This document shows, one piece after another, positions 30,926 to 45,506 of a stretch of 64,000 bases of DNA. The number at the start of each line of letters is the position of its first letter. Within the stretch, counting starts at the first letter, position 1. Both the position numbers and the translations under genes were made by a program. The notes below the pieces were generated by a model that saw only the letters and a list, made by a program, of their open reading frames with translations, was not told the origin of the DNA and made no database searches. The DNA comes from Escherichia phage UP19: sequence record OX638288. One strand, written 5' to 3'.

Positions 30926-31807
30926 ATGAACATTAAAACACGTAAAGAATACTCTATATACGACCATGACACGACTCGTCGTATCGCTATCGATCGGCTA
31001 GCCGACTTTGGCTATATTCGTAATGGTAATTATACTTATGGTGTAGGACGTAAAGGAACTTATATCGGTTCTTTGAACGATTATTGCCGTTGCCCAGCCC
31101 ACCTGTTTGGTGCAACATTGCGGGCTAATATCAAAGACCTCTTGGCTACCGCAGGACGTATTTCTACGGTTCCTGTTAATATCAAAAGTATTAATTTTAC
31201 GGCTCGTAACCTAGTCATTAATATTCTGGCTGACGGTATTCAAGTTCGTTTCCGTCCTACCTCAAAAGGTAATAAGGCCCTTCGTGAAGCATTCGAAACC
31301 TTATTCAGAGAAGCAATGACTCGTATTAAGGCCGTAGAATCATATAAAGTTACAACCGATGAATATGCTGATTGTTCTGGACGGGCTGATGCGGTGTATT
31401 TTAATGTTAAACTAACTCGTGAATATCTTTTGTCTTATGCCCCTTATCAATCCCAACAAAAGGACCCACAAATGGAACGTCGTATATCTATCGCTACCTC
31501 TACAGTATCATGTGACAGTGTAGGCCAGTATGCAGCCTATGACAAATTCAAAACCACTGCTGTGCCTAGTCCATTCAATTCCGAACCATATCATTGGAAA
31601 ATTAAACCTGATAATTCTTTGGTTGTTACTAACCCTACGATGAAACCTATTGAGACCTATTATGCAGATAGCATTCAGGAATCAATCCACCGTTTAAATG
31701 GTCAGATTGAAGATGAGAAAAAGAGCATTCAAGACGTATTGACCCGCATCAAGAATATGGAAAACCAGCGTGACAAGCTCAGCGCGGCACTATTAGCTCT
31801 AAAATAG
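30926..31807 (+). CDS. hypothetical protein
   Basis: ATG 30926; 293 aa; C-terminal coiled coil. Confidence 0.55.
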   Translation: MNIKTRKEYSIYDHDTTRRIAIDRLADFGYIRNGNYTYGVGRKGTYIGSLNDYCRCPAHLFGATLRANIKDLLATAGRISTVPVNIKSINFTARNLVINILADGIQVRFRPTSKGNKALREAFETLFREAMTRIKAVESYKVTTDEYADCSGRADAVYFNVKLTREYLLSYAPYQSQQKDPQMERRISIATSTVSCDSVGQYAAYDKFKTTAVPSPFNSEPYHWKIKPDNSLVVTNPTMKPIETYYADSIQESIHRLNGQIEDEKKSIQDVLTRIKNMENQRDKLSAALLALK

Positions 31808-31850
31808 TGTTTACATCCAAGGACGGATGGAGTATAATCCTTTTATCAAC
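31808..31850 (+). promoter_or_regulatory. early promoter / stem-loop cassette (variant with TATAAT)
   Basis: gtttacatccaaggacggatggagtataatccttttatcaa. Confidence 0.55.
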
Positions 31851-31866
31851 TACTGAGGAGAATATC

Positions 31867-32877
31867 ATGACCCGTACTGAATACATCAATGCCTTTACTA
31901 AGTATATCACTGACAATACCCCTCCATTAACACCGTATGAGGTGATAGTTTCTAATATCAATAAATGGGTAGACCAAATTGATAAAGCATTATCCAATTG
32001 TTTCAAAGATGAAATCGAAAAGATTGCAGGCCGTTTGTTTATTTCTGATATCGTAGATACATTTAAAGGTTCTCGACTGCTTTCACGGTTGGTCAATAAG
32101 GATATCCTTTCAGAGTTTGGCAAAGAGAAACACCCAGGTTCCAGCCACGTTGTTAGCTACCAATGGTTTGGTGATGTTTTAAAAAGCTATATCAAAATGA
32201 AAGGTACCGACCCTAAGGGCTTATTTCCTTTACGTTGGGCCGGTGAATTTAAGGCTAACTCCGCATTAATTCTAAAAGCAGCAACCAAAACCTTTGTAAA
32301 GGGTGATTGTCGTACTATCCACCCTATGGCTGATGGCATGATTAAAACAAACAACTATAAAGGGAAGGTGCTTATTTCTATTATTTGGTCGCCTAGTTGG
32401 AAACCTAAAGAAGTTGAAGTTTCGAAATACCAAGATATTTCCTACAATACCCTGAATATTGTAGAACAAGCTTTAGCTTTGATGGATACAGTAGAGAAAT
32501 ATGAGATTCAAGAAATCAACCACCACTTAGGCTGGAAAGGATATGAAGTTTTAGTAACAGTTCGCGAAATCAAATGCCCTGTTCCAAAAACCGACGCTGA
32601 AATTTACCAAGAAAAATGTGAGGAAATTGTGAACACTGATAAAGAGCCTGCAACCTTAGAAGACTTGATTGATGAGCTGAATGGCCCAAGGCTACTGGCC
32701 TGTGCACCAATTACTAAATCCAAGCCGCCAGAAGTAGTTGTTCTGGAAAAAGCATATAAAGATGCCCTTGCTATCAACAAAAAACTGACCGGACAATATA
32801 CTGCTGCCAAGAAACTTTGGGAAGAGTCTACCAATCGTCTGGATAAACTGGAACAAGCCCTGGAGCTGTTGAAATGA
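31867..32877 (+). CDS. hypothetical protein
   Basis: ATG 31867 after SD gaggag; 336 aa. Confidence 0.55.
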   Translation: MTRTEYINAFTKYITDNTPPLTPYEVIVSNINKWVDQIDKALSNCFKDEIEKIAGRLFISDIVDTFKGSRLLSRLVNKDILSEFGKEKHPGSSHVVSYQWFGDVLKSYIKMKGTDPKGLFPLRWAGEFKANSALILKAATKTFVKGDCRTIHPMADGMIKTNNYKGKVLISIIWSPSWKPKEVEVSKYQDISYNTLNIVEQALALMDTVEKYEIQEINHHLGWKGYEVLVTVREIKCPVPKTDAEIYQEKCEEIVNTDKEPATLEDLIDELNGPRLLACAPITKSKPPEVVVLEKAYKDALAINKKLTGQYTAAKKLWEESTNRLDKLEQALELLK

Positions 32878-33095
32878 AATACCAATTAGCTGACGATATT
32901 GACCAAACTATTCCTGATTGGAATGCTGTTATTAAAATTGTCGAACGTCGTGAAAAAGCTTCTAAGAATGTTCCAAACTGTCCTATGTGTGGAACTGAAC
33001 AGGTCCAGTTGGTTCAATGGCGCCATAATCCGCTTCAGTATAAATGCCGCCATTGTAAACACCGATTTGAGCGAGACGAAAATGGCAAAGCGTAA
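32874..33095 (+). CDS. zinc-ribbon small protein
   Basis: CPMC...CRHC four-Cys ribbon. Confidence 0.5.
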
Positions 33096-33318
33096 AGAAT
33101 ATGTAGAGGCCGCCGATAAGGCGGTTCGTGAACTTACTCTGGCTTATTATAAAGAGCATGGTAAATTCCCGGACAGTTATTCAGTATTGAAATCTGCTTT
33201 AACTCGTTCATATAATAATATGCGTTCAGAAGTTTATGATATTATGGACAAACATAAAGAACAAACCGGTCAATACCCGGATTATACTGAGACCTTCAAA
33301 CAAGTATTAGGAATTTAA
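33082..33318 (+). CDS. hypothetical protein
   Basis: ATG 33082; 78 aa. Confidence 0.45.
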
Positions 33319-33319
33319 A

Positions 33320-33583
33320 ATGTTTAAAATTTATGGTTATGATTCAAATATTCATCGTTGTGTTTTCTGTGATAATGCTAAACGTTTTTTGGATGTTAAG
33401 AAACAACCTTACGAATTCATCAACGTTATGCCAGAAAAAGGTATGTTTGATGATGAGAAGATTGCTCAACTCCTGGCTGCACTTGGTCGCGAATCTCAAA
33501 TCGGTTTGACCATGCCGCAAGTATTTGCCCCTGACGGAACTTCTATTGGTGGCTTTGACCAACTGCGAGCATATTTCAAATGA
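33320..33583 (+). CDS. nrdC: glutaredoxin NrdC
   Basis: 87 aa MFKIYGYDSNIHRCVFCDNAKR...; CxxC active site; like T4 NrdC. Confidence 0.9.
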   Translation: MFKIYGYDSNIHRCVFCDNAKRFLDVKKQPYEFINVMPEKGMFDDEKIAQLLAALGRESQIGLTMPQVFAPDGTSIGGFDQLRAYFK

Positions 33584-33741
33584 TTGAATTATCATTAGTT
33601 ATTTTGTATCTTATCATCGGTATTGGTTATGCTAAGACCCTAGCTAAATTGGATGATTCGGGTGATTTTTGTTGGTGGTTGACGTCTATGATTTGTTGGC
33701 CTTTATTTCTGGTTGGTGCTTCATTCTGGAACTTCAAATGA
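33580..33741 (+). CDS. small membrane peptide (53 aa)
   Basis: ATG overlaps nrdC stop; hydrophobic; below ORF-track length cut-off. Confidence 0.4.
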   Translation: MIELSLVILYLIIGIGYAKTLAKLDDSGDFCWWLTSMICWPLFLVGASFWNFK

Positions 33742-33914
33742 CCGAATTTGATACAGCTTATGAAACCTGCGCAGGAGAGTTTGATACTCCTGCCCCTAGT
33801 AAAGAAACCGTATTGGCAAATCTCCCGGTTTGGTTAAAAGAAGAAGCCAACGAATGGGGCTGGACTGATACCTGTGTACGTGACCAACTATTTGAATTTA
33901 TGGCGGAGTTATGA
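33738..33914 (+). CDS. hypothetical acidic protein
   Basis: ATG 33738 (ATGA coupling); 58 aa. Confidence 0.45.
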   Translation: MTEFDTAYETCAGEFDTPAPSKETVLANLPVWLKEEANEWGWTDTCVRDQLFEFMAEL

Positions 33915-34219
33915 TTGAATTAAATGAACAGACTATTTTTCTAGGTGATGGTACTGAAGATGACCTGGAATATAAACTATACGAGTATATGGTTTGGTTG
34001 GCTAAAGCAGAAGGTATTGACTTTGTTGTGGCTAATCCATATGGCGAGAACACCGTTGTAATCGGTGGCACTGCTTATGAAGTCCAATGGCAATACGTTG
34101 GGCTTGAATCTGAAGAATTTGAAGAAGATGAACATGGTGATTGGCATCCGGTTGGTCCCTGGTTCTGGGAAGACGGTGAACCCGATTTTGAAGTATCAAG
34201 TTGGTGGCGTGACCATTAA
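33911..34219 (+). CDS. hypothetical acidic Trp-rich protein
   Basis: 102 aa ORF. Confidence 0.5.
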   Translation: MIELNEQTIFLGDGTEDDLEYKLYEYMVWLAKAEGIDFVVANPYGENTVVIGGTAYEVQWQYVGLESEEFEEDEHGDWHPVGPWFWEDGEPDFEVSSWWRDH

Positions 34220-34335
34220 GCCCTGGTATACCGCTCGATGGGAAACCGTCGAGCCAGAGGAACCGGTTTACAACGATTCCGAAATAGATTATAATGAACC
34301 TTCAAACAATGATTTAATCGATATGGAGTTTGGAT

Positions 34336-34509
34336 ATGAGTACCAAAATTGAAGTTGGCCGTCATAAAGGCCGTCTGATTGAACATTCACTTTACGAATT
34401 GTCGGATTCCCGTAAGTTACCTGATGAAGAATCTGCTTTAATTTTTGCTGCAGCCGATTATATTCATTGGCTTGAAGCTCAACTTCGCTTTTCCGATGAG
34501 GCCTTCTGA
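34336..34509 (+). CDS. hypothetical small protein (57 aa)
   Basis: ATG 34336; ATGA-coupled to next ORF. Confidence 0.4.
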   Translation: MSTKIEVGRHKGRLIEHSLYELSDSRKLPDEESALIFAAADYIHWLEAQLRFSDEAF

Positions 34510-34811
34510 TGAATTTATTTGAATTTGAAGGTAAAACTGTTCGTATTACTGAAGAAGATGTCGACCATTATGTTGACTGGCCTGAATTAAACGGCAATCG
34601 CGGTTTTGAGTCAGGCGAGCTCTGTGAAGGTGCTGAAGTTAAAATCTTGAAGGTGGAGATTTCTCCATGGGGCAATCCTGAAATCATTGGCGTAACTGCT
34701 ATCGAATTCAATGGTAAGGTATACGAATACACTAAAGAAATGTTTGAAGATACTAAAGCTTCATTCTGGTGTTTTTGGACTAACGATGATAATGAATTTG
34801 AGGTCGCATGA
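34509..34811 (+). CDS. hypothetical protein
   Basis: 100 aa ORF. Confidence 0.5.
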   Translation: MNLFEFEGKTVRITEEDVDHYVDWPELNGNRGFESGELCEGAEVKILKVEISPWGNPEIIGVTAIEFNGKVYEYTKEMFEDTKASFWCFWTNDDNEFEVA

Positions 34812-40340: not shown

Positions 40341-40484
40341 ATGGAATTACTTTTAGGATATGTCGTGTTATTCATGGCATTCTACACATTCACACGAGCC
40401 TGTTGGATAGGATTCTTTTCTACTCCTGATGGGTTCATCTCAATAATTTTATTTTGCATTGCGATAACGGTGCTCGGCTTATGA
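40341..40484 (+). CDS. small membrane peptide (47 aa)
   Basis: SD gaggag before ATG; hydrophobic; stop overlaps gene 47 ATG. Confidence 0.4.
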   Translation: MELLLGYVVLFMAFYTFTRACWIGFFSTPDGFISIILFCIAITVLGL

Positions 40485-41503
40485 AAATATTAAACACAGG
40501 TGACTGGCACCTTGGAGTGAAGGCCGATGATGTGTGGGTACAAAATATCCAACGTCAAGGTATCCAAGACGCTATCAATTATTCTAAAGCAAATGGTATT
40601 ACCGTGTGGATTCAATACGGTGATATCTTTGACGTTCGTAAAGCAATTACCCATAAGTGTATGGAATTCGCTCGCGAAATCTCTGATTTGCTTAAAGCTA
40701 ATGGCATTACCATGTATACCATTGTTGGTAATCATGATATGCACTACAAAAATACCTTGACTCCTAACGCAGCTTCTGAAGTTCTGGGTAAATATGACCA
40801 TATCAAGGTTATTGAGAAACCTACTACGGTTAACTTTGATGGCACCGAAATTGATTTGATTCCATGGATGTGTGAAGAAAACACGACTGATATCATGGAC
40901 CATATCAAAAATACCACAGCAGATTTCTGTATTGGACATTGGGAATTAAATGGTTTCTATTTCTATAAAGGAATGAAATCTCATGGTTTAGAACCTGATT
41001 TCCTTAAAAAGTATAAGCAAGTTTGGTCAGGCCACTTCCACACTATTTCTGATGCAGCAAACGTCAAGTACATTGGTACTCCATGGACCCTTACTGCAGG
41101 CGATGAGAACGACCCTCGTGGTTTCTGGATTTTCGATACCGAAACTCATAAAATGGATTTCATCATTAATGAAACCTGTTGGCATCGTAAGATTCATTAT
41201 CCTAACGAGACTATCGATTACAAAGATTTTACAAATATCGCAGTTCGTGTTATAGTCGATAAAATCGATGACGGTCTTACTAAGTTCGAATCAGAGCTTG
41301 AAAAGGTTGTTCACTCTTTACGTATTGTGTCTAAGGTAGATAATAGTGTTGATATCGATGATTCTGAAGAGGAAGACGAAGTTAAATCCCTCTTGGATAT
41401 GATGTATGATTATATCGATGCCCTTCCTGATGGCCACACTGAAGCCGATGTTAAAGCCCTTAAGACTATGGCTGCACAACTTTATAATGAGGTTACACGA
41501 TGA
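40481..41503 (+). CDS. 47: recombination endonuclease subunit gp47 (Mre11-like)
   Basis: MKILNTGDWHLGVKADD...GNHDMH...; phosphoesterase motifs; like T4 gp47. Confidence 0.95.
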   Translation: MKILNTGDWHLGVKADDVWVQNIQRQGIQDAINYSKANGITVWIQYGDIFDVRKAITHKCMEFAREISDLLKANGITMYTIVGNHDMHYKNTLTPNAASEVLGKYDHIKVIEKPTTVNFDGTEIDLIPWMCEENTTDIMDHIKNTTADFCIGHWELNGFYFYKGMKSHGLEPDFLKKYKQVWSGHFHTISDAANVKYIGTPWTLTAGDENDPRGFWIFDTETHKMDFIINETCWHRKIHYPNETIDYKDFTNIAVRVIVDKIDDGLTKFESELEKVVHSLRIVSKVDNSVDIDDSEEEDEVKSLLDMMYDYIDALPDGHTEADVKALKTMAAQLYNEVTR

Positions 41504-41763
41504 CTTTAGATGAATTCAAAAAATCGGGACTTGAACTGGAACACGACTGTATAGTTATTGATGATGATGGTCAACCTAGTACAATTAAGTTCTGGTTTGA
41601 AGCCGTGAGCACTCGTGATACCGGCGAGCTTATTAAAGTTTATGTTGCTACCGATTGGGCTGTAGAATTTAGCTTTAATGTAATGGTAGATGATACTCCA
41701 GAAACATTAATTCATATGGCTGAATCATGCATCAAGGATGCTTATAACGATGAAGACTTTTAA
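41500..41763 (+). CDS. hypothetical protein
   Basis: 87 aa between 47 and 46. Confidence 0.5.
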   Translation: MTLDEFKKSGLELEHDCIVIDDDGQPSTIKFWFEAVSTRDTGELIKVYVATDWAVEFSFNVMVDDTPETLIHMAESCIKDAYNDEDF

Positions 41764-43432
41764 GTTAAAGAAAGTAACGTATAAAAATATTATGTCGGTC
41801 GGGCAGCAGCCCATTACAATCCAACTTGATAAGGTCCAAAAGACCTTAGTCACTGGTAAAAATGGTGCAGGGAAATCAACATTCCTTGAAGCTGTAACAT
41901 TTGCTCTGTTCGGTAAGCCTTTTCGTGATGTTAAGAAAGGGCAGTTGATTAACTCAAGTAACAAGAAAGACCTTTTGGTCGAACTGTGGATGGAATATGA
42001 TGGCAAAGAATACTATATCAAACGCGGGCAAAAACCCAACGTTTTTGAAATCTCTTGTGACGGTGAACGTCTTGATGAATCTGCCAGCAGTAAAGACTTC
42101 CAAGCGGAATTTGAACAGCTTATCGGAATGTCCTATGCAAGCTTCAAACAAATTGTCGTACTCGGCACAGCTGGATATACCCCTTTTATGGGCCTATCCA
42201 CTCCTGCAAGAAGAAAACTCGTCGAAGACCTCTTAGAGGTTTCTGTATTGGCGGATATGGATAAGTTAAACAAATCTTTGATTCGTGAGACCAATAGCCA
42301 AATCCAAGTAATAGACGTTAAGCAAGATTCTATTACCCAACAAATTAAAATTTATAATGACAACGAAGAACGTCAACGTAAATTATCTGGCGAAAACGCT
42401 GCCCGTCTACAATTAATGTATGATGAGCTCGTTAAAGAAGCCAGGACTGCGAAGGCGAGCATAGAATCCCTGACTGATGAATTACTCAATGTTATCGTAG
42501 ATGATGACCCTAGCGATTCCATGAGTGACCTGAGTAATAAAGGATTTGCAATCAAAAATGATATGGCAACCTTTACAAAGGTGGTTAAGTTATACGAAAC
42601 CGGTGGTCACTGCCCTACGTGTATGCAAGGGTTAGAAGAGAATGGTAATATCCTTACTAAAATTAAGGATAAAAACTTTGAGCTTCAAAAATCTTTGGAT
42701 AAGATTAATGAGCAATACCAAGAGCTCAAGCTCATTAAAGACCAAGTAACCGAACAACGCAATAAAGCGTTGGCTATTAAATCTCAGATAGCTACTCATA
42801 AGCAGCAAGCCATTACTGCTGTAGAGAAAGCCAAAAAGGTTAAGGTATTAATTGACCAAGCGGCAGCTGAGTTCGTAAGTAATGCCGAAGAGATTGCTGC
42901 GCTTCAAGCAGAGCTTGATAAAATCGTCTCTACCAAATCGTCCTTGGTAATGGAAAAATATCATCGTGGAATTCTGACAGAAATGTTGAAGGATACAGGT
43001 ATTAAAGGTTCCATTATTAAGAAATACATTCCTATCTTTAATAAGCAGATTAATTCTTATTTGAAGATGTTAGAGGCGGATTATAGTTTTTCTCTTGACG
43101 AAGAGTTCAATGAGACGATTAAGTCGCGTGGACGCGAAGACTTTAGTTATGCTTCATTTAGTGAAGGTGAAAAGTCTAGAATAGATGTGGCTCTGTTATT
43201 TACCTGGCGAGATATTGCTTCAAAGGTTTCAGGCATTAATATATCTACTCTTATTCTTGATGAGGTCTTTGATGGAAGTTTTGATGCAGAAGGTATTAAA
43301 GGTGTATCAAATATTATAAATTCTTTGGAAGATTCTAATGTCTTTATAATTTCACACAAAGACCATGACCCACAATCGTATGGACAACATTTACAAATGA
43401 AGAAGGTTGGCCGCTTTACAGTATTAGAATAA
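41750..43432 (+). CDS. 46: recombination endonuclease subunit gp46 (Rad50-like)
   Basis: ATG 41750; Walker A TGKNGAGKST; coiled-coil centre with CPTC zinc hook; signature and Walker B at C-terminus. Confidence 0.95.
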   Translation: MKTFKLKKVTYKNIMSVGQQPITIQLDKVQKTLVTGKNGAGKSTFLEAVTFALFGKPFRDVKKGQLINSSNKKDLLVELWMEYDGKEYYIKRGQKPNVFEISCDGERLDESASSKDFQAEFEQLIGMSYASFKQIVVLGTAGYTPFMGLSTPARRKLVEDLLEVSVLADMDKLNKSLIRETNSQIQVIDVKQDSITQQIKIYNDNEERQRKLSGENAARLQLMYDELVKEARTAKASIESLTDELLNVIVDDDPSDSMSDLSNKGFAIKNDMATFTKVVKLYETGGHCPTCMQGLEENGNILTKIKDKNFELQKSLDKINEQYQELKLIKDQVTEQRNKALAIKSQIATHKQQAITAVEKAKKVKVLIDQAAAEFVSNAEEIAALQAELDKIVSTKSSLVMEKYHRGILTEMLKDTGIKGSIIKKYIPIFNKQINSYLKMLEADYSFSLDEEFNETIKSRGREDFSYASFSEGEKSRIDVALLFTWRDIASKVSGINISTLILDEVFDGSFDAEGIKGVSNIINSLEDSNVFIISHKDHDPQSYGQHLQMKKVGRFTVLE

Positions 43433-44115
43433 TGAGACATCTTGTTTACAAAATAATAAATTTAGTTAATAATAAGTACTATGTAGGGATACATAGTACT
43501 GAAAATATTAAAGATTCGTATATGGGCTCTGGTTTATATATTAAAGCTTCTATTAAAAAATATGGTTTGGAAAATCATAGAAAGGAAATACTTTATAATT
43601 TTGATACCAGAGAAGAGGCTATCCAAATGGAAAGAATTATAGTCAATGAGGAATTTATAAAGAACCCTCTTACATATAATATTTCTTTAGGAGGTAATGC
43701 CGCACCTTTTATAAAAGAGGAAACCAGACTTAAACAGAGTATAGCTGCTAAAAATAGACCGTATTCATTTTATGAAAACCTTTTTAAAACTAGAAAGAAA
43801 TCTAAATGCCTAGAGCTAAGAAATAAATCTAAAGAACATATAGAAAAAATTCGTCAGAGTAATATAAGAAATGGTACATATTTGCCTGAGAACAACCCTA
43901 TGTTCGGAAAAACTCATAGCCAAGAAACAAGGGATAAAATTTCTATAGCCCTTAATTCTAGGTCTGACGAAGCAAAACAGGCTATGAAAAGCAAACAATC
44001 TGCAAAAGCTAAAAGCAGACCAACTGTAAAGTGCCCATATTGTGATAAAATTGGCTCTAACAACATTATGAAACGATGGCACTTTGATAATTGTAAATTA
44101 AAGGATGCTTCATAA
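43432..44115 (+). mobile_element. GIY-YIG homing endonuclease gene (Seg-like) inserted between 46 and rpbA
   Basis: 227 aa; GIY-YIG motifs KYYVGIH...YMGSG; C-terminal repeated K/R-rich NUMOD-like DNA-binding modules; atypical codon/AT content. Confidence 0.75.
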
Positions 44116-44306
44116 TGAGTGATTTTATAACAGGCCAGCATTTGTTGGCCGTTCCAGAAATAAAGAGATATGTTTTAGTTAACAACTTCTCTGGAGACGA
44201 ACATCTTGTTACTGAAGATTATCTCCAAAATGCTTTTAAGTCAGAATATGTTACAATCATGTCAAATAGAAATCCAGCATGGTTTGTCTATGAGTACTTT
44301 GATTAA
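44115..44306 (+). CDS. hypothetical small protein
   Basis: 63 aa; ATGA-coupled to endonuclease gene. Confidence 0.45.
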   Translation: MSDFITGQHLLAVPEIKRYVLVNNFSGDEHLVTEDYLQNAFKSEYVTIMSNRNPAWFVYEYFD

Positions 44307-44308
44307 AT

Positions 44309-44334
44309 TGCTTTAAAATATTGATTTATAATAC
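44309..44334 (+). promoter_or_regulatory. candidate MotA-type middle promoter for rpbA/45
   Basis: TGCTTTA, 12 nt, TATAAT; textbook T4 middle-promoter spacing. Confidence 0.5.
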
Positions 44335-44362
44335 ATTTACCAACTAAATGAGAGAAAATATT

Positions 44363-44782
44363 ATGTTTGCTACTTCTAATGGCGTTACCGTTAAAGATAT
44401 CCAAGTTAAAACCATCCGTACTGATTCCAACCCACATAATCAGAACCGTATCCGTAAATCATGGGTACTGAATATTGATACCGACTCTGCACGCCGACTG
44501 CAGTCTCTTCCACAAGAAACCAAGTTTATGCTGTACAGTATCATCGATAATGATGTATCTGATAAGTGGATTGAAATCATGCGTAAACACTTTAAAGATT
44601 CTTTGGCTGCAGGTGCTAAACTTGTTATCGACCGCGACGGTTCTGAACGTTTAGAAGACGATTATTGCGTCGACCCTGATGAGCAGTTGCTTGAAGCCGG
44701 TTCTATTATTGCTTCCAAGATTCCAGAGTATATTGAATCTCTGCCTGAATCAATCCGTAAACAAATGATCGTAATTGCTTAA
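44363..44782 (+). CDS. rpbA: RNA polymerase binding protein RpbA-like
   Basis: ATG 44363; 139 aa; position directly upstream of gene 45 as in T4. Confidence 0.55.
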   Translation: MFATSNGVTVKDIQVKTIRTDSNPHNQNRIRKSWVLNIDTDSARRLQSLPQETKFMLYSIIDNDVSDKWIEIMRKHFKDSLAAGAKLVIDRDGSERLEDDYCVDPDEQLLEAGSIIASKIPEYIESLPESIRKQMIVIA

Positions 44783-44807
44783 TAATTTGACTTGATAAGG
44801 AAACATT

Positions 44808-45506
44808 ATGAAATTCTCTAAAGAAACCCTGAACATTCTTAAAAACTTCTCTGGTATTAACCCAGGCATTATGCTTAAACCAGGTAACACCATTCTGACC
44901 CGATCTGTTACCGGTGCAAGTTATGGTGAAGCTACTGTAAGTGATACCTTCGATATCGAAGCAGCAATCTATGATTTGAATGGCTTCTTAAGTATTCTGT
45001 CTTTGGTATCGGAAAGTGCTGAAGTTTCGGTAAGTGAAGACCAAACAACATTAATTATTAAAGACCAACGTTCAACAATTAAGTGGCCTATTGCCGACCC
45101 AAGCACAATCGCATTCCCAAGTAAAGCTATTCCGTTCCCTGTGGCCGAAGTTATTTTCGACCTGAAAGCCGAAGATTATCAACAGTTGATGCGTGTGTCC
45201 TCTGGTCTGAGTATTGATACATTTGCAATCACTGTAGACGATGGTAAAATTGTTATCAACGGTTATAAACAAGTCGACGATAAAGAATTAACTCGCCCAT
45301 TGTATTCTCTGGTCGTGGCCGACCATGATGGTCCTGACTTTAAGTTCATCATTAACAAAACCAATATGAAAATGATGCCTGCTGATTATCATGTGTTGTT
45401 ATGGGCGCGCGGTGAAGGTCAGGATGCTCGATTTGCAGCTAAGTTTGAAGGTACACAAGCTTCTTATGTATTAGCTATGGAAGCAGGCTCAAGCCACTCG
45501 TTCTAA
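44808..45506 (+). CDS. 45: sliding clamp gp45
   Basis: 232 aa MKFSKETLNILKNFSGINPGIMLKPG...; like T4 gp45. Confidence 0.95.
   Translation: MKFSKETLNILKNFSGINPGIMLKPGNTILTRSVTGASYGEATVSDTFDIEAAIYDLNGFLSILSLVSESAEVSVSEDQTTLIIKDQRSTIKWPIADPSTIAFPSKAIPFPVAEVIFDLKAEDYQQLMRVSSGLSIDTFAITVDDGKIVINGYKQVDDKELTRPLYSLVVADHDGPDFKFIINKTNMKMMPADYHVLLWARGEGQDARFAAKFEGTQASYVLAMEAGSSHSF

Follow-up and report, generated by a model that had tools for sequence, protein, structure and literature searches.

What is an open reading frame (ORF) of 227 amino acids (aa) doing between gene 46 and gene 45.2 of Escherichia phage UP19, at a junction where most closely related phages have no insert? The ORF is found on the plus strand at positions 43432-44115 of a 64,000-nucleotide (nt) stretch of sequence record OX638288, here termed the window; coordinates refer to the window unless another locus is named. 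It begins with ATG, has 227 codons and a stop, and relative to phages with an empty site it is an exact 684 bp insert. A first-pass annotation, made from the letters of the sequence, had proposed a Seg-like homing endonuclease gene at this locus. The present analysis indicates that 43432-44115 in all likelihood encodes a homing endonuclease of the T-even Seg type, and that the gene would be a seamless cassette spread by cleavage and repair together with the 3′ end of gene 46. What is new is the insertion site, 46/45.2, and a catalytic domain of the SegA-E type that is joined to a different DNA-binding tail.

The empty site and the inserted gene

Megablast places the window with the Dhakaviruses, in the JS98/JS10 group (JS10/EcWhh-1-like). 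The empty state of the junction is present in JS10, JS98 and EcWhh-1, and in most of the ∼50 Dhakavirus-level records. At the empty site, the TGA stop codon of gene 46 overlaps the ATG of gene 45.2 (ATGA, in the sequence ...GAATGAGTG...), and the record span is 1515 bp, as compared with 2201 bp in the window. Relative to JS10, JS98 and EcWhh-1, the 684 bp insert is seamless and on the same strand, and it changes one ATGA overlap into two TAATG overlaps. The first of these, at 43430-43434, joins the endonuclease ATG to the gene 46 stop codon, and the second, at 44113-44117, joins the endonuclease stop codon to the ATG of gene 45.2. The start of gene 45.2, formerly coupled to the stop of gene 46, is thus now coupled to that of the endonuclease gene. 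Phage T4 has a 55 bp spacer at 46/45.2 and no endonuclease gene there.

The TAATGAG sequence that occurs as a 7 bp direct repeat at 43430 and 44113 was considered as a target-site duplication and rejected. The repeat is present because both ORFs begin with ATGAG after a TAA stop codon, and the real ambiguity of the junction is 3 bp (AAT).

Gene 45.2 (44115-44306, plus strand) is a 63-aa ORF that matches Pfam Gp45_2 at 5e-26 and is 100% identical to its counterpart in EcWhh-1. T4 and all relatives that do not have the endonuclease gene possess it, and since it is kept in all empty-site relatives, it is a resident conserved gene and not part of the insert. The first-pass annotation had treated this small coupled ORF as part of the element, which does not hold, and had placed the endonuclease gene between gene 46 and rpbA; the gene does adjoin gene 46, but its right neighbour is 45.2 and not rpbA. 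The span of 43432-44306 that had been given to the element also needs correction at both ends, as the transferred unit holds 363 bp of gene 46 to the left and excludes 45.2 on the right. Other parts of that annotation agree with what was found. The 227-aa ORF is present and intact, related phages do have an empty site, with gene 46 abutting 45.2 in most Dhakaviruses, and the ORF is neither common to all relatives nor devoid of nuclease motifs.

The composition of the insert is foreign, in agreement with the AT-richness noted earlier. The endonuclease ORF has a GC content of 0.301, and 0.229 at third codon positions (GC3), compared with a mean GC of 0.389 for the window and a GC3 of 0.35-0.39 for neighbouring genes. 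Segments of 684 bp that are equally low in GC amount to 0.24% across the 64 kb, and every one of them overlaps the endonuclease locus. The low-GC foreign DNA does not begin at the ORF. It begins at 43069, within gene 46.

A foreign 3′ end of gene 46

Gene 46 (41750-43432, plus strand) encodes the SbcC/Rad50-like recombination nuclease subunit; it matches SMC_N and AAA_23 above the Pfam cut-offs and PHROG 77 at 1.7e-191, and has annotated orthologues. It is the probable target gene of the endonuclease. The extent of the foreign DNA was mapped by sliding identity profiles and mismatch maps against two phages, EcWhh-1, which has the empty site, and UGJNEcP3, which carries the insert.

The mismatch maps and GC3 delimit a foreign block at the 3′ end of gene 46 (43069-43431, plus strand), which comprises approximately codons 440-560 and the region of the ATP-binding cassette (ABC) signature, Walker B motif and H-loop. 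Relative to EcWhh-1, there are 97 mismatches in these 363 bp (27%) and none in the preceding 317 bp. Identity is 99-100% on both sides of the insert, with one mismatch in 900 bp downstream. In the 26 kb comparison with EcWhh-1, the gene 46 block is the most divergent alignable 360 bp segment (73.9% identity, against a median of 99.4%). Its GC3 is 0.258. Of its 120 codons, 21 have replacement and 46 have synonymous changes relative to the empty allele, for an amino acid identity of 83%.

The comparison with UGJNEcP3 displays the converse pattern. There are no mismatches from 43052 to 44150 (plus strand), and 5-10% divergence outside these limits. The full tract, over which the window and UGJNEcP3 are 100% identical, therefore has its exchange points within 43052-43068 and 44116-44150. 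Because the EcWhh-1/JS10 backbone is 99-100% identical on both sides, the tract ends can be read to within 17-35 bp. A 1.1 kb cassette is thus found in two backbones that otherwise differ by ∼5%. It is made up of the endonuclease gene, flanked by a foreign gene 46 3′ end on the left and by no more than 36 bp of gene 45.2 on the right. From these alignments, 43052-44150 reads as a natural co-conversion footprint.

This type of gene 46 block, at an identity of at least 99%, is confined to records that carry the endonuclease gene. No donor of the block was found, the best non-carriers being phage vB_EcoM_FB at 84.7% and Tequatroviruses at ∼80%; as the best matches are no closer than this, the original donor lineage appears to be unsampled. 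The block is presumed to represent both the co-conversion tract and an allele that is resistant to cleavage.

Two other regions of the window also depart from EcWhh-1/JS10. One is a patch of ∼400 bp at 40400-40800 (47.1 and the start of gene 47), with 90-91% identity. The other is a 3.5 kb stretch at 31000-34500 (nrdC to 49.x), with 80-88% identity. In addition, 34339/34513-34808 is unalignable. The latter segment has small accessory ORFs, such as a 100-aa ORF at 34509-34811. No endonuclease gene was seen there.

Protein family and domain structure

The window protein was compared with every Seg, Tev and Mob protein of T4 (NC_000866). By BLASTP, its catalytic domain is 51% identical to SegD, 50.5% to SegB, 47.6% to SegC, 46.6% to SegE and 39% to SegA; these matches span ∼90 aa and have E values of 6e-18 to 6e-32. 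SegF is only 29% identical, and no BLASTP match to SegG was found at E≤1. The whole ORF matches PHROG 314, termed "homing endonuclease", over its full length at 2.7e-50.

As the curated sequence models were not decisive (see below), the fold was tested directly. An alignment of 42 homologues served as input for residue conservation, a sequence profile and an AlphaFold2 model. The profile of this 42-sequence family reached I-TevI among the PDB sequences at an E value of 9.4e-5. The model has a mean predicted local distance difference test (pLDDT) score of 87, with residues 1-90 at 97-98, and its top Foldseek match is to I-TevI (1MK0/1LN0), with a probability of 1.0 and a template modelling (TM) score of 0.65 on the target. 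The predicted structure of the window protein shows the GIY-YIG alpha/beta fold. Many homologues of the protein themselves carry precomputed matches to PF01541 or PF19835. Since the nuclease models are below threshold for the window protein itself, it is the fold, the profile and the Seg identities that support the family assignment.

Eight alignment columns are invariant or nearly so in the 42 homologues: Y6, Y17, G19, Y30, S33, E67, Y82 and N83. Among these, Y6, Y17, G19, E67 and N83 form an invariant catalytic set that aligns with I-TevI, by way of the profile, and with all T4 Seg proteins. They correspond to the tyrosines of the GIY and YIG motifs, the catalytic glutamate (I-TevI E75) and the asparagine (I-TevI N90). 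The KYYVGIH and YMGSG motifs to which the first-pass annotation had pointed are both present and fall in these (nearly) invariant columns, although YMGSG is a motif of the Seg family and not the canonical GIY/YIG. The segment that contains R27 in I-TevI is an insertion relative to the window protein and to all seven T4 Seg proteins, and no equivalent arginine can be placed from sequence. SegA, SegB, SegC, SegE, SegF and SegG are listed as active enzymes in Table 1 of PMC2988022; as these six T4 proteins also do not have the R27 segment, its absence would be a family trait and not a lesion.

The protein has a modular arrangement. The GIY-YIG catalytic domain of the SegA-E type, assigned by the Seg identities, the fold and the profile, comprises aa 1-92 (43432-43707, plus strand). 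It is followed by a NUMOD3 DNA-binding motif at aa 133-171 (43828-43944, plus strand), which scores 32.5 bits with Pfam PF07460 against a cut-off of 20.4; window residues 153-171 are 53% identical to I-TevI residues 173-191. Close to the C-terminus, at aa 201-221 (44032-44094, plus strand), is a CCHC zinc-finger-like motif, CPYCDKIGSNNIMKRWHFDNC, found by regular expression and by inspection of the sequence and modelled at a pLDDT of 91-95. The finger is found in most of the 42 homologues and in no Seg or Mob protein of T4. The C-terminal half of the window protein has no counterpart in the T4 Seg proteins. As had been noted earlier, this part is basic: residues 95-227 have 32 lysines and arginines against 14 aspartates and glutamates, with an isoelectric point of 10.0.

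An Rfam search of 42500-45000 revealed no family at E≤1, which indicates that the gene is free-standing and not intron-borne. An origin as an intron-encoded gene of the I-TevI type was rejected, as there is no match to an intron model and the flanking genes are complete and uninterrupted. In sum, fold prediction and sequence comparison point to a free-standing GIY-YIG nuclease of the SegA-E clade that has a DNA-binding half with NUMOD3 and CCHC motifs and a predicted nuclease activity. The assignment as a free-standing Seg-like GIY-YIG endonuclease made in the first-pass annotation is thus borne out, with 47-51% identity to SegB, SegC, SegD and SegE and no intron RNA.

Distribution of carriers and of homologues

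Carriers of the endonuclease gene are rare. In a set of 50,697 phage records, it is confined to UGJNEcP3 and UGJNEcP4, and the nucleotide sequence in UGJNEcP3 is 100% identical to that of the window. Among 5.8 billion protein clusters, a single cluster contains the window protein, and the next relative is 40% identical. The same protein is encoded by a Logan contig, which matches the window at 100% identity over 6.7 kb and therefore represents the same phage and not an independent backbone. In IMG/VR, nothing above 38% identity was found at full length, and there are two partial N-terminal matches at 49-55%. An exact search of JGI metagenomes for the left junction gave zero matches.

Of 84 loci with distant homologues, none is at the 46/45.2 junction, and the closest are between uvsY and uvsW or upstream of gene 47. 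Relatives of the window protein thus appear, from these positions, to occupy differing homing sites beside recombination genes. Among the nearest homologues at full length is one with 35% identity and the same CCHC finger, encoded by contig Ga0208500_1000001 (L016:4001-4558; IMG/VR, JGI). In this distant T4-like phage, its gene is flanked by uvsY and uvsW, a position that resembles the segE site of T4 (inh/uvsW).

The automatic annotation of UGJNEcP3 already labels the gene "homing endonuclease". No publication on the 46/45.2 site was found, and the Dhakavirus literature that was found consists of general genome papers. Neither a review of T4 mobile elements (PMC2988022) nor an article on homing endonuclease gene (HEG) islands (PMC10448857) mentions gp46 as an endonuclease neighbour.

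Expression signals and neighbouring genes

The UAAUG overlap, together with the lack of a Shine-Dalgarno sequence and of a convincing promoter, suggests that expression is by termination-reinitiation. No exact T4 late promoter (TATAAATA) is present in 42800-44400. Sequences that resemble a MotA box, (A/T)(A/T)TGCTT(T/C)A, are found at 43148-43156 and 43214-43222, within the foreign gene 46 block and 210-285 bp upstream of the endonuclease start. A third is at 44307-44315 in the spacer between 45.2 and rpbA, with TATAAT at 44326, and is probably the resident middle promoter of rpbA.

A perfect hairpin with an 11 bp stem and a 4 nt loop, AGTACTATGTA-GGGA-TACATAGTACT, is found at 43475-43500 (plus strand) and has a free energy of -14.1 kcal/mol. 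It begins 44 nt and ends 69 nt into the endonuclease ORF and covers the codons for KYYVGIHST. It is the sole perfect stem of at least 11 bp in the 64 kb, where 0.17 are expected per shuffle. No U-tract follows it on the plus strand. In T4, mobE and segF are reported to have terminators in the 5′ part of the coding region (PMC2988022).

Of the neighbours named in the first-pass annotation, gp46, RpbA and the gp45 clamp are all confirmed by Pfam and PHROG. RpbA (Pfam, 3.5e-46) is encoded downstream and is followed by the gp45 clamp (gp45-slide_C, 1.6e-34). Farther upstream of gene 46 are the genes for gp46.2 (Pfam T4_Y03C) and gp47.

A second endonuclease at the same junction

Other Dhakaviruses have a different insert at 46/45.2. 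In IME281, MX01, Bp7, KIT01 and 04086, the junction contains a 717 bp ORF on the opposite strand, and a chimeric form of it is found in FB. The IME281 copy (L003:2139-2855, minus strand) encodes a Mob-like HNH endonuclease that matches PHROG 655 at 4e-69, with an HNH domain 46-48% identical to those of T4 MobE and MobB. The HNH protein and the window protein have only the CCHC finger in common, and it is present in two copies in the former.

The HNH insert is also accompanied by a changed gene 46. IME281 and EcWhh-1 are 99.2% identical over the first 1319 nt of the gene, and there is a single mismatch in nt 1150-1454. Dense divergence then sets in at nt 1455/1471 and continues through the end of the gene (nt 1683), and within 45.2 only the first ∼10 nt differ. 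The HNH-associated gene 46 block is 98.9% identical between IME281 and MX01, phages with backbones that are 94% identical, and it is present in exactly eight records, those with the full HNH insert. Judged by these alignments, the HNH insert appears to be an independent repeat of the pattern in which an endonuclease is linked to its own gene 46 block.

Phage vB_EcoM_FB (L004:1770-2855) has mixed affinities. The part of its HNH gene nearest to 45.2 is 96% identical to that of IME281, and the part nearest to gene 46 is unmatched by megablast. The 3′ block of gene 46 in FB has 84% nucleotide and 95% amino acid identity to the window block, compared with 76% to the HNH-associated block. These mixed matches indicate a recombination point inside the HNH gene.

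The common CCHC finger was considered as a sign of a common target for the two nucleases, and was rejected because the finger is found in most homologues, whatever their site. By manual count in the 42-sequence alignment, the window protein's finger resembles those of the uvsY/uvsW-site homologue and of the HNH protein to an equal degree.

MX01 has an additional ORF of 188 aa between genes 45 and 44 (L005:4293-4859, plus strand). The encoded protein falls into PHROG 314 (8.5e-16), and towards its C-terminus it has 33% identity to T4 MobD. In the window, no insert separates genes 45 and 44.

Proposed mechanism and alternative explanations

In T-even phages, free-standing endonucleases cut an endonuclease-less genome at sites that may be hundreds to thousands of bp away from the gene that encodes them. 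When the break is repaired from the carrier genome, the endonuclease gene is copied and the flanks are co-converted, and many of these genes are promoter-less cassettes within host operons (PMC2988022). In crosses, SegB, SegE, SegF and SegG display near-100% inheritance and local marker exclusion (PMC2330249).

A comparable series of steps can be proposed for the window gene. The gene 46 transcript would probably serve for translation of the endonuclease, with termination-reinitiation at UAAUG. In a mixed infection, it would make a double-strand break in the endonuclease-less allele, either at the 46/45.2 junction or in the ∼380 bp of gene 46 that precede it. The break would be resected and then repaired from the genome that carries the endonuclease gene, and repair would copy both this gene and the donor gene 46 3′ end. 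The donor 3′ end, with its 27% DNA and 17% protein divergence, presumably does not have the recognition site, and the carrier would then be immune. Both exchange points are at the first available homology, namely the border of the divergent block on the left and the start of 45.2 on the right, which would be consistent with break repair with minimal resection. The position of the break follows from the bounds of the natural tract: if the tract arose by repair, the recipient would have been broken between the two exchange points, which places the cut at the junction or in the final ∼380 bp of gene 46. The first-pass annotation had also associated genes of this kind with marker exclusion in T-even crosses. 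For the window gene this is backed by the natural co-conversion footprint, and by that alone rather than by a cross.

Several observations weigh against transfer driven by an active nuclease. At the protein level, the Pfam GIY-YIG model (PF01541) scores 14.6 bits, below its cut-off of 22.6; SegE_GIY-YIG (PF19835) scores 16.2 bits against a cut-off of 25; and TIGR01453 reaches 35.2 bits, below its cut-off of 56. A single-sequence search of the PDB sequences gave spurious matches only, at an E value of 0.28. Upstream of the ORF there is neither a Shine-Dalgarno sequence nor a convincing promoter, and a scan for sigma-70 promoters and terminators showed no enrichment, with four promoter-like sites as compared with 8.6 expected from shuffles. 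At the level of the tract, T-even genomes are mosaic and other divergent patches exist, at ∼31-34.5 kb and 40.4-40.8 kb, and a recombination tract alone is no proof of nuclease-driven transfer. The common left edge of the foreign block may derive from one original acquisition, and the length of the right tract is unmeasurable if the donor 45.2 region resembled that of the recipient. Lastly, only two independent backbones carry the cassette; UGJNEcP3 and UGJNEcP4, which are equal in genome length, match the window identically and may be one phage.

Some of these points could also be accommodated by an inactive or decaying relic of a homing endonuclease, the ORF and its gene 46 block having been moved by ordinary homologous recombination in mixed infections. 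Mosaicism, with other divergent patches in the same comparison, would be in keeping with such a history, as would sub-threshold Pfam nuclease models and an ORF that has no Shine-Dalgarno sequence or promoter. The lineage is also rare, with one cluster in 5.8 billion and no member from IMG/VR or from the junction search of JGI metagenomes, and the T4 annotation itself includes the defective endonuclease genes mobA and I-TevIII. The ORF, however, is full-length, all of its family-invariant catalytic residues are intact and its model is confident. In addition, two backbones that differ by ∼5% carry the cassette without a single nucleotide difference, which argues for recent transfer and no decay, and the tract is anchored exactly on the endonuclease gene, with the HNH insert independently showing the same link between block and endonuclease. 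A relic is therefore considered unlikely.

It might also be asked whether the nuclease is kept mainly for the benefit of the phage, through exclusion of competitors or remodelling of the genome under host defence. This overlaps with spread by cleavage and repair. Seg enzymes do cause local marker exclusion of co-infecting phages (PMC2330249), and SegB is reported to promote amplification of anti-defence loci (PMC13096335). As the cassette preserves the translational coupling between 46 and 45.2, it probably costs the phage little. The sequence itself, however, gives no information about benefit, and the sporadic distribution, in two of ∼50 Dhakavirus records, fits a selfish element better; a role of this kind as the main reason for retention seems quite improbable. 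Lastly, a gene ancestral at 46/45.2, with the empty sites as deletions, can be practically dismissed: endonuclease genes do undergo deletion, a general point that lends no specific support here, but the clean ATGA overlap is common to several diverged lineages (JS10, JS98 and EcWhh-1), T4 does not have an endonuclease gene there, the insert has a foreign composition, two diverged backbones carry an identical cassette, and the nearest homologues (35-40% identity) are at other sites.

Significance of the 46/45.2 site

Interpreted as a homing endonuclease cassette, the insert adds a Seg-like lineage and the 46/45.2 site to the repertoire of T-even homing endonucleases. It also leads to a narrow prediction, that the cleavage site is in the last ∼380 bp of the gene 46 empty allele or at the junction. 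At the level of genome evolution, otherwise near-identical phages can differ by 27% within a short part of an essential recombination gene (gp46/Rad50), owing to a neighbouring selfish gene. This divergence of gene 46 is a caveat that matters for the phylogeny and typing of therapeutic T4-like phages.

Two unrelated endonucleases at one junction provide a system for the study of homing endonuclease competition. Perhaps 46/45.2 of the Dhakaviruses is a contested homing site, where the two nucleases compete, each with a private, diverged allele of the C-terminal ATPase lobe of gp46. This is a speculative proposal that is more doubtful than probable. Should both enzymes cleave within the final ∼230-380 bp of gene 46, with each allele resistant to its own nuclease only, then the empty, GIY-YIG and HNH states could form a competitive, and possibly non-transitive, exclusion system. 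If true, it would entail rapid protein change in a recombination nuclease that processes breaks, with 17% amino acid replacement in the signature/Walker B/H-loop region of gp46.

Comparison with known systems

The closest known systems are the Seg endonucleases of T4. The window protein and SegA-E have in common the pattern Y...YxG...DxYxGSG...E...YN, and neither has the R27 insertion of I-TevI. As with the T4 seg genes, the window gene encodes a protein of similar size, with ∼205-225 aa for the Seg proteins, is intergenic and free-standing beside a conserved gene of DNA metabolism, and is present or absent among close relatives. It differs in its location, as T4 holds no endonuclease gene at 46/45.2, and in its unrelated C-terminal half, which carries the NUMOD3 motif and a CCHC 'WHFDNC' finger, the latter absent from the T4 Seg and Mob proteins.

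With segF and segG in particular, the window gene shares the properties of a promoter-less cassette within an existing operon (PMC2988022). It also adjoins a conserved gene, the near part of which is replaced along with it. The co-converted tract of Seg systems is described as hundreds of bp (PMC2988022; PMC2330249; Liu et al., 2003, as cited there). Sequence similarity to SegF and SegG is weak, however, and co-conversion is here read from natural genomes and not from crosses.

I-TevI is the best structural match for the catalytic domain, and the two proteins have in common a modular arrangement of nuclease, linker, NUMOD3 and zinc finger. The window gene differs in that it is outside of an intron and its product does not have the R27 segment. 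Its zinc finger is of another type and is at the extreme C-terminus, and no helix-turn-helix module was detected.

The Mob-like HNH insert resembles the window insert in its position at the 46/45.2 junction, its private foreign gene 46 3′ block and its exchange point at the very start of 45.2. A CCHC finger, 'CPxC...RWHFDNC', is common to both proteins, with two copies in the HNH protein. The HNH insert nevertheless belongs to an unrelated nuclease family, is on the opposite strand, has non-coding spacers in place of overlaps and replaces the first codons of 45.2.

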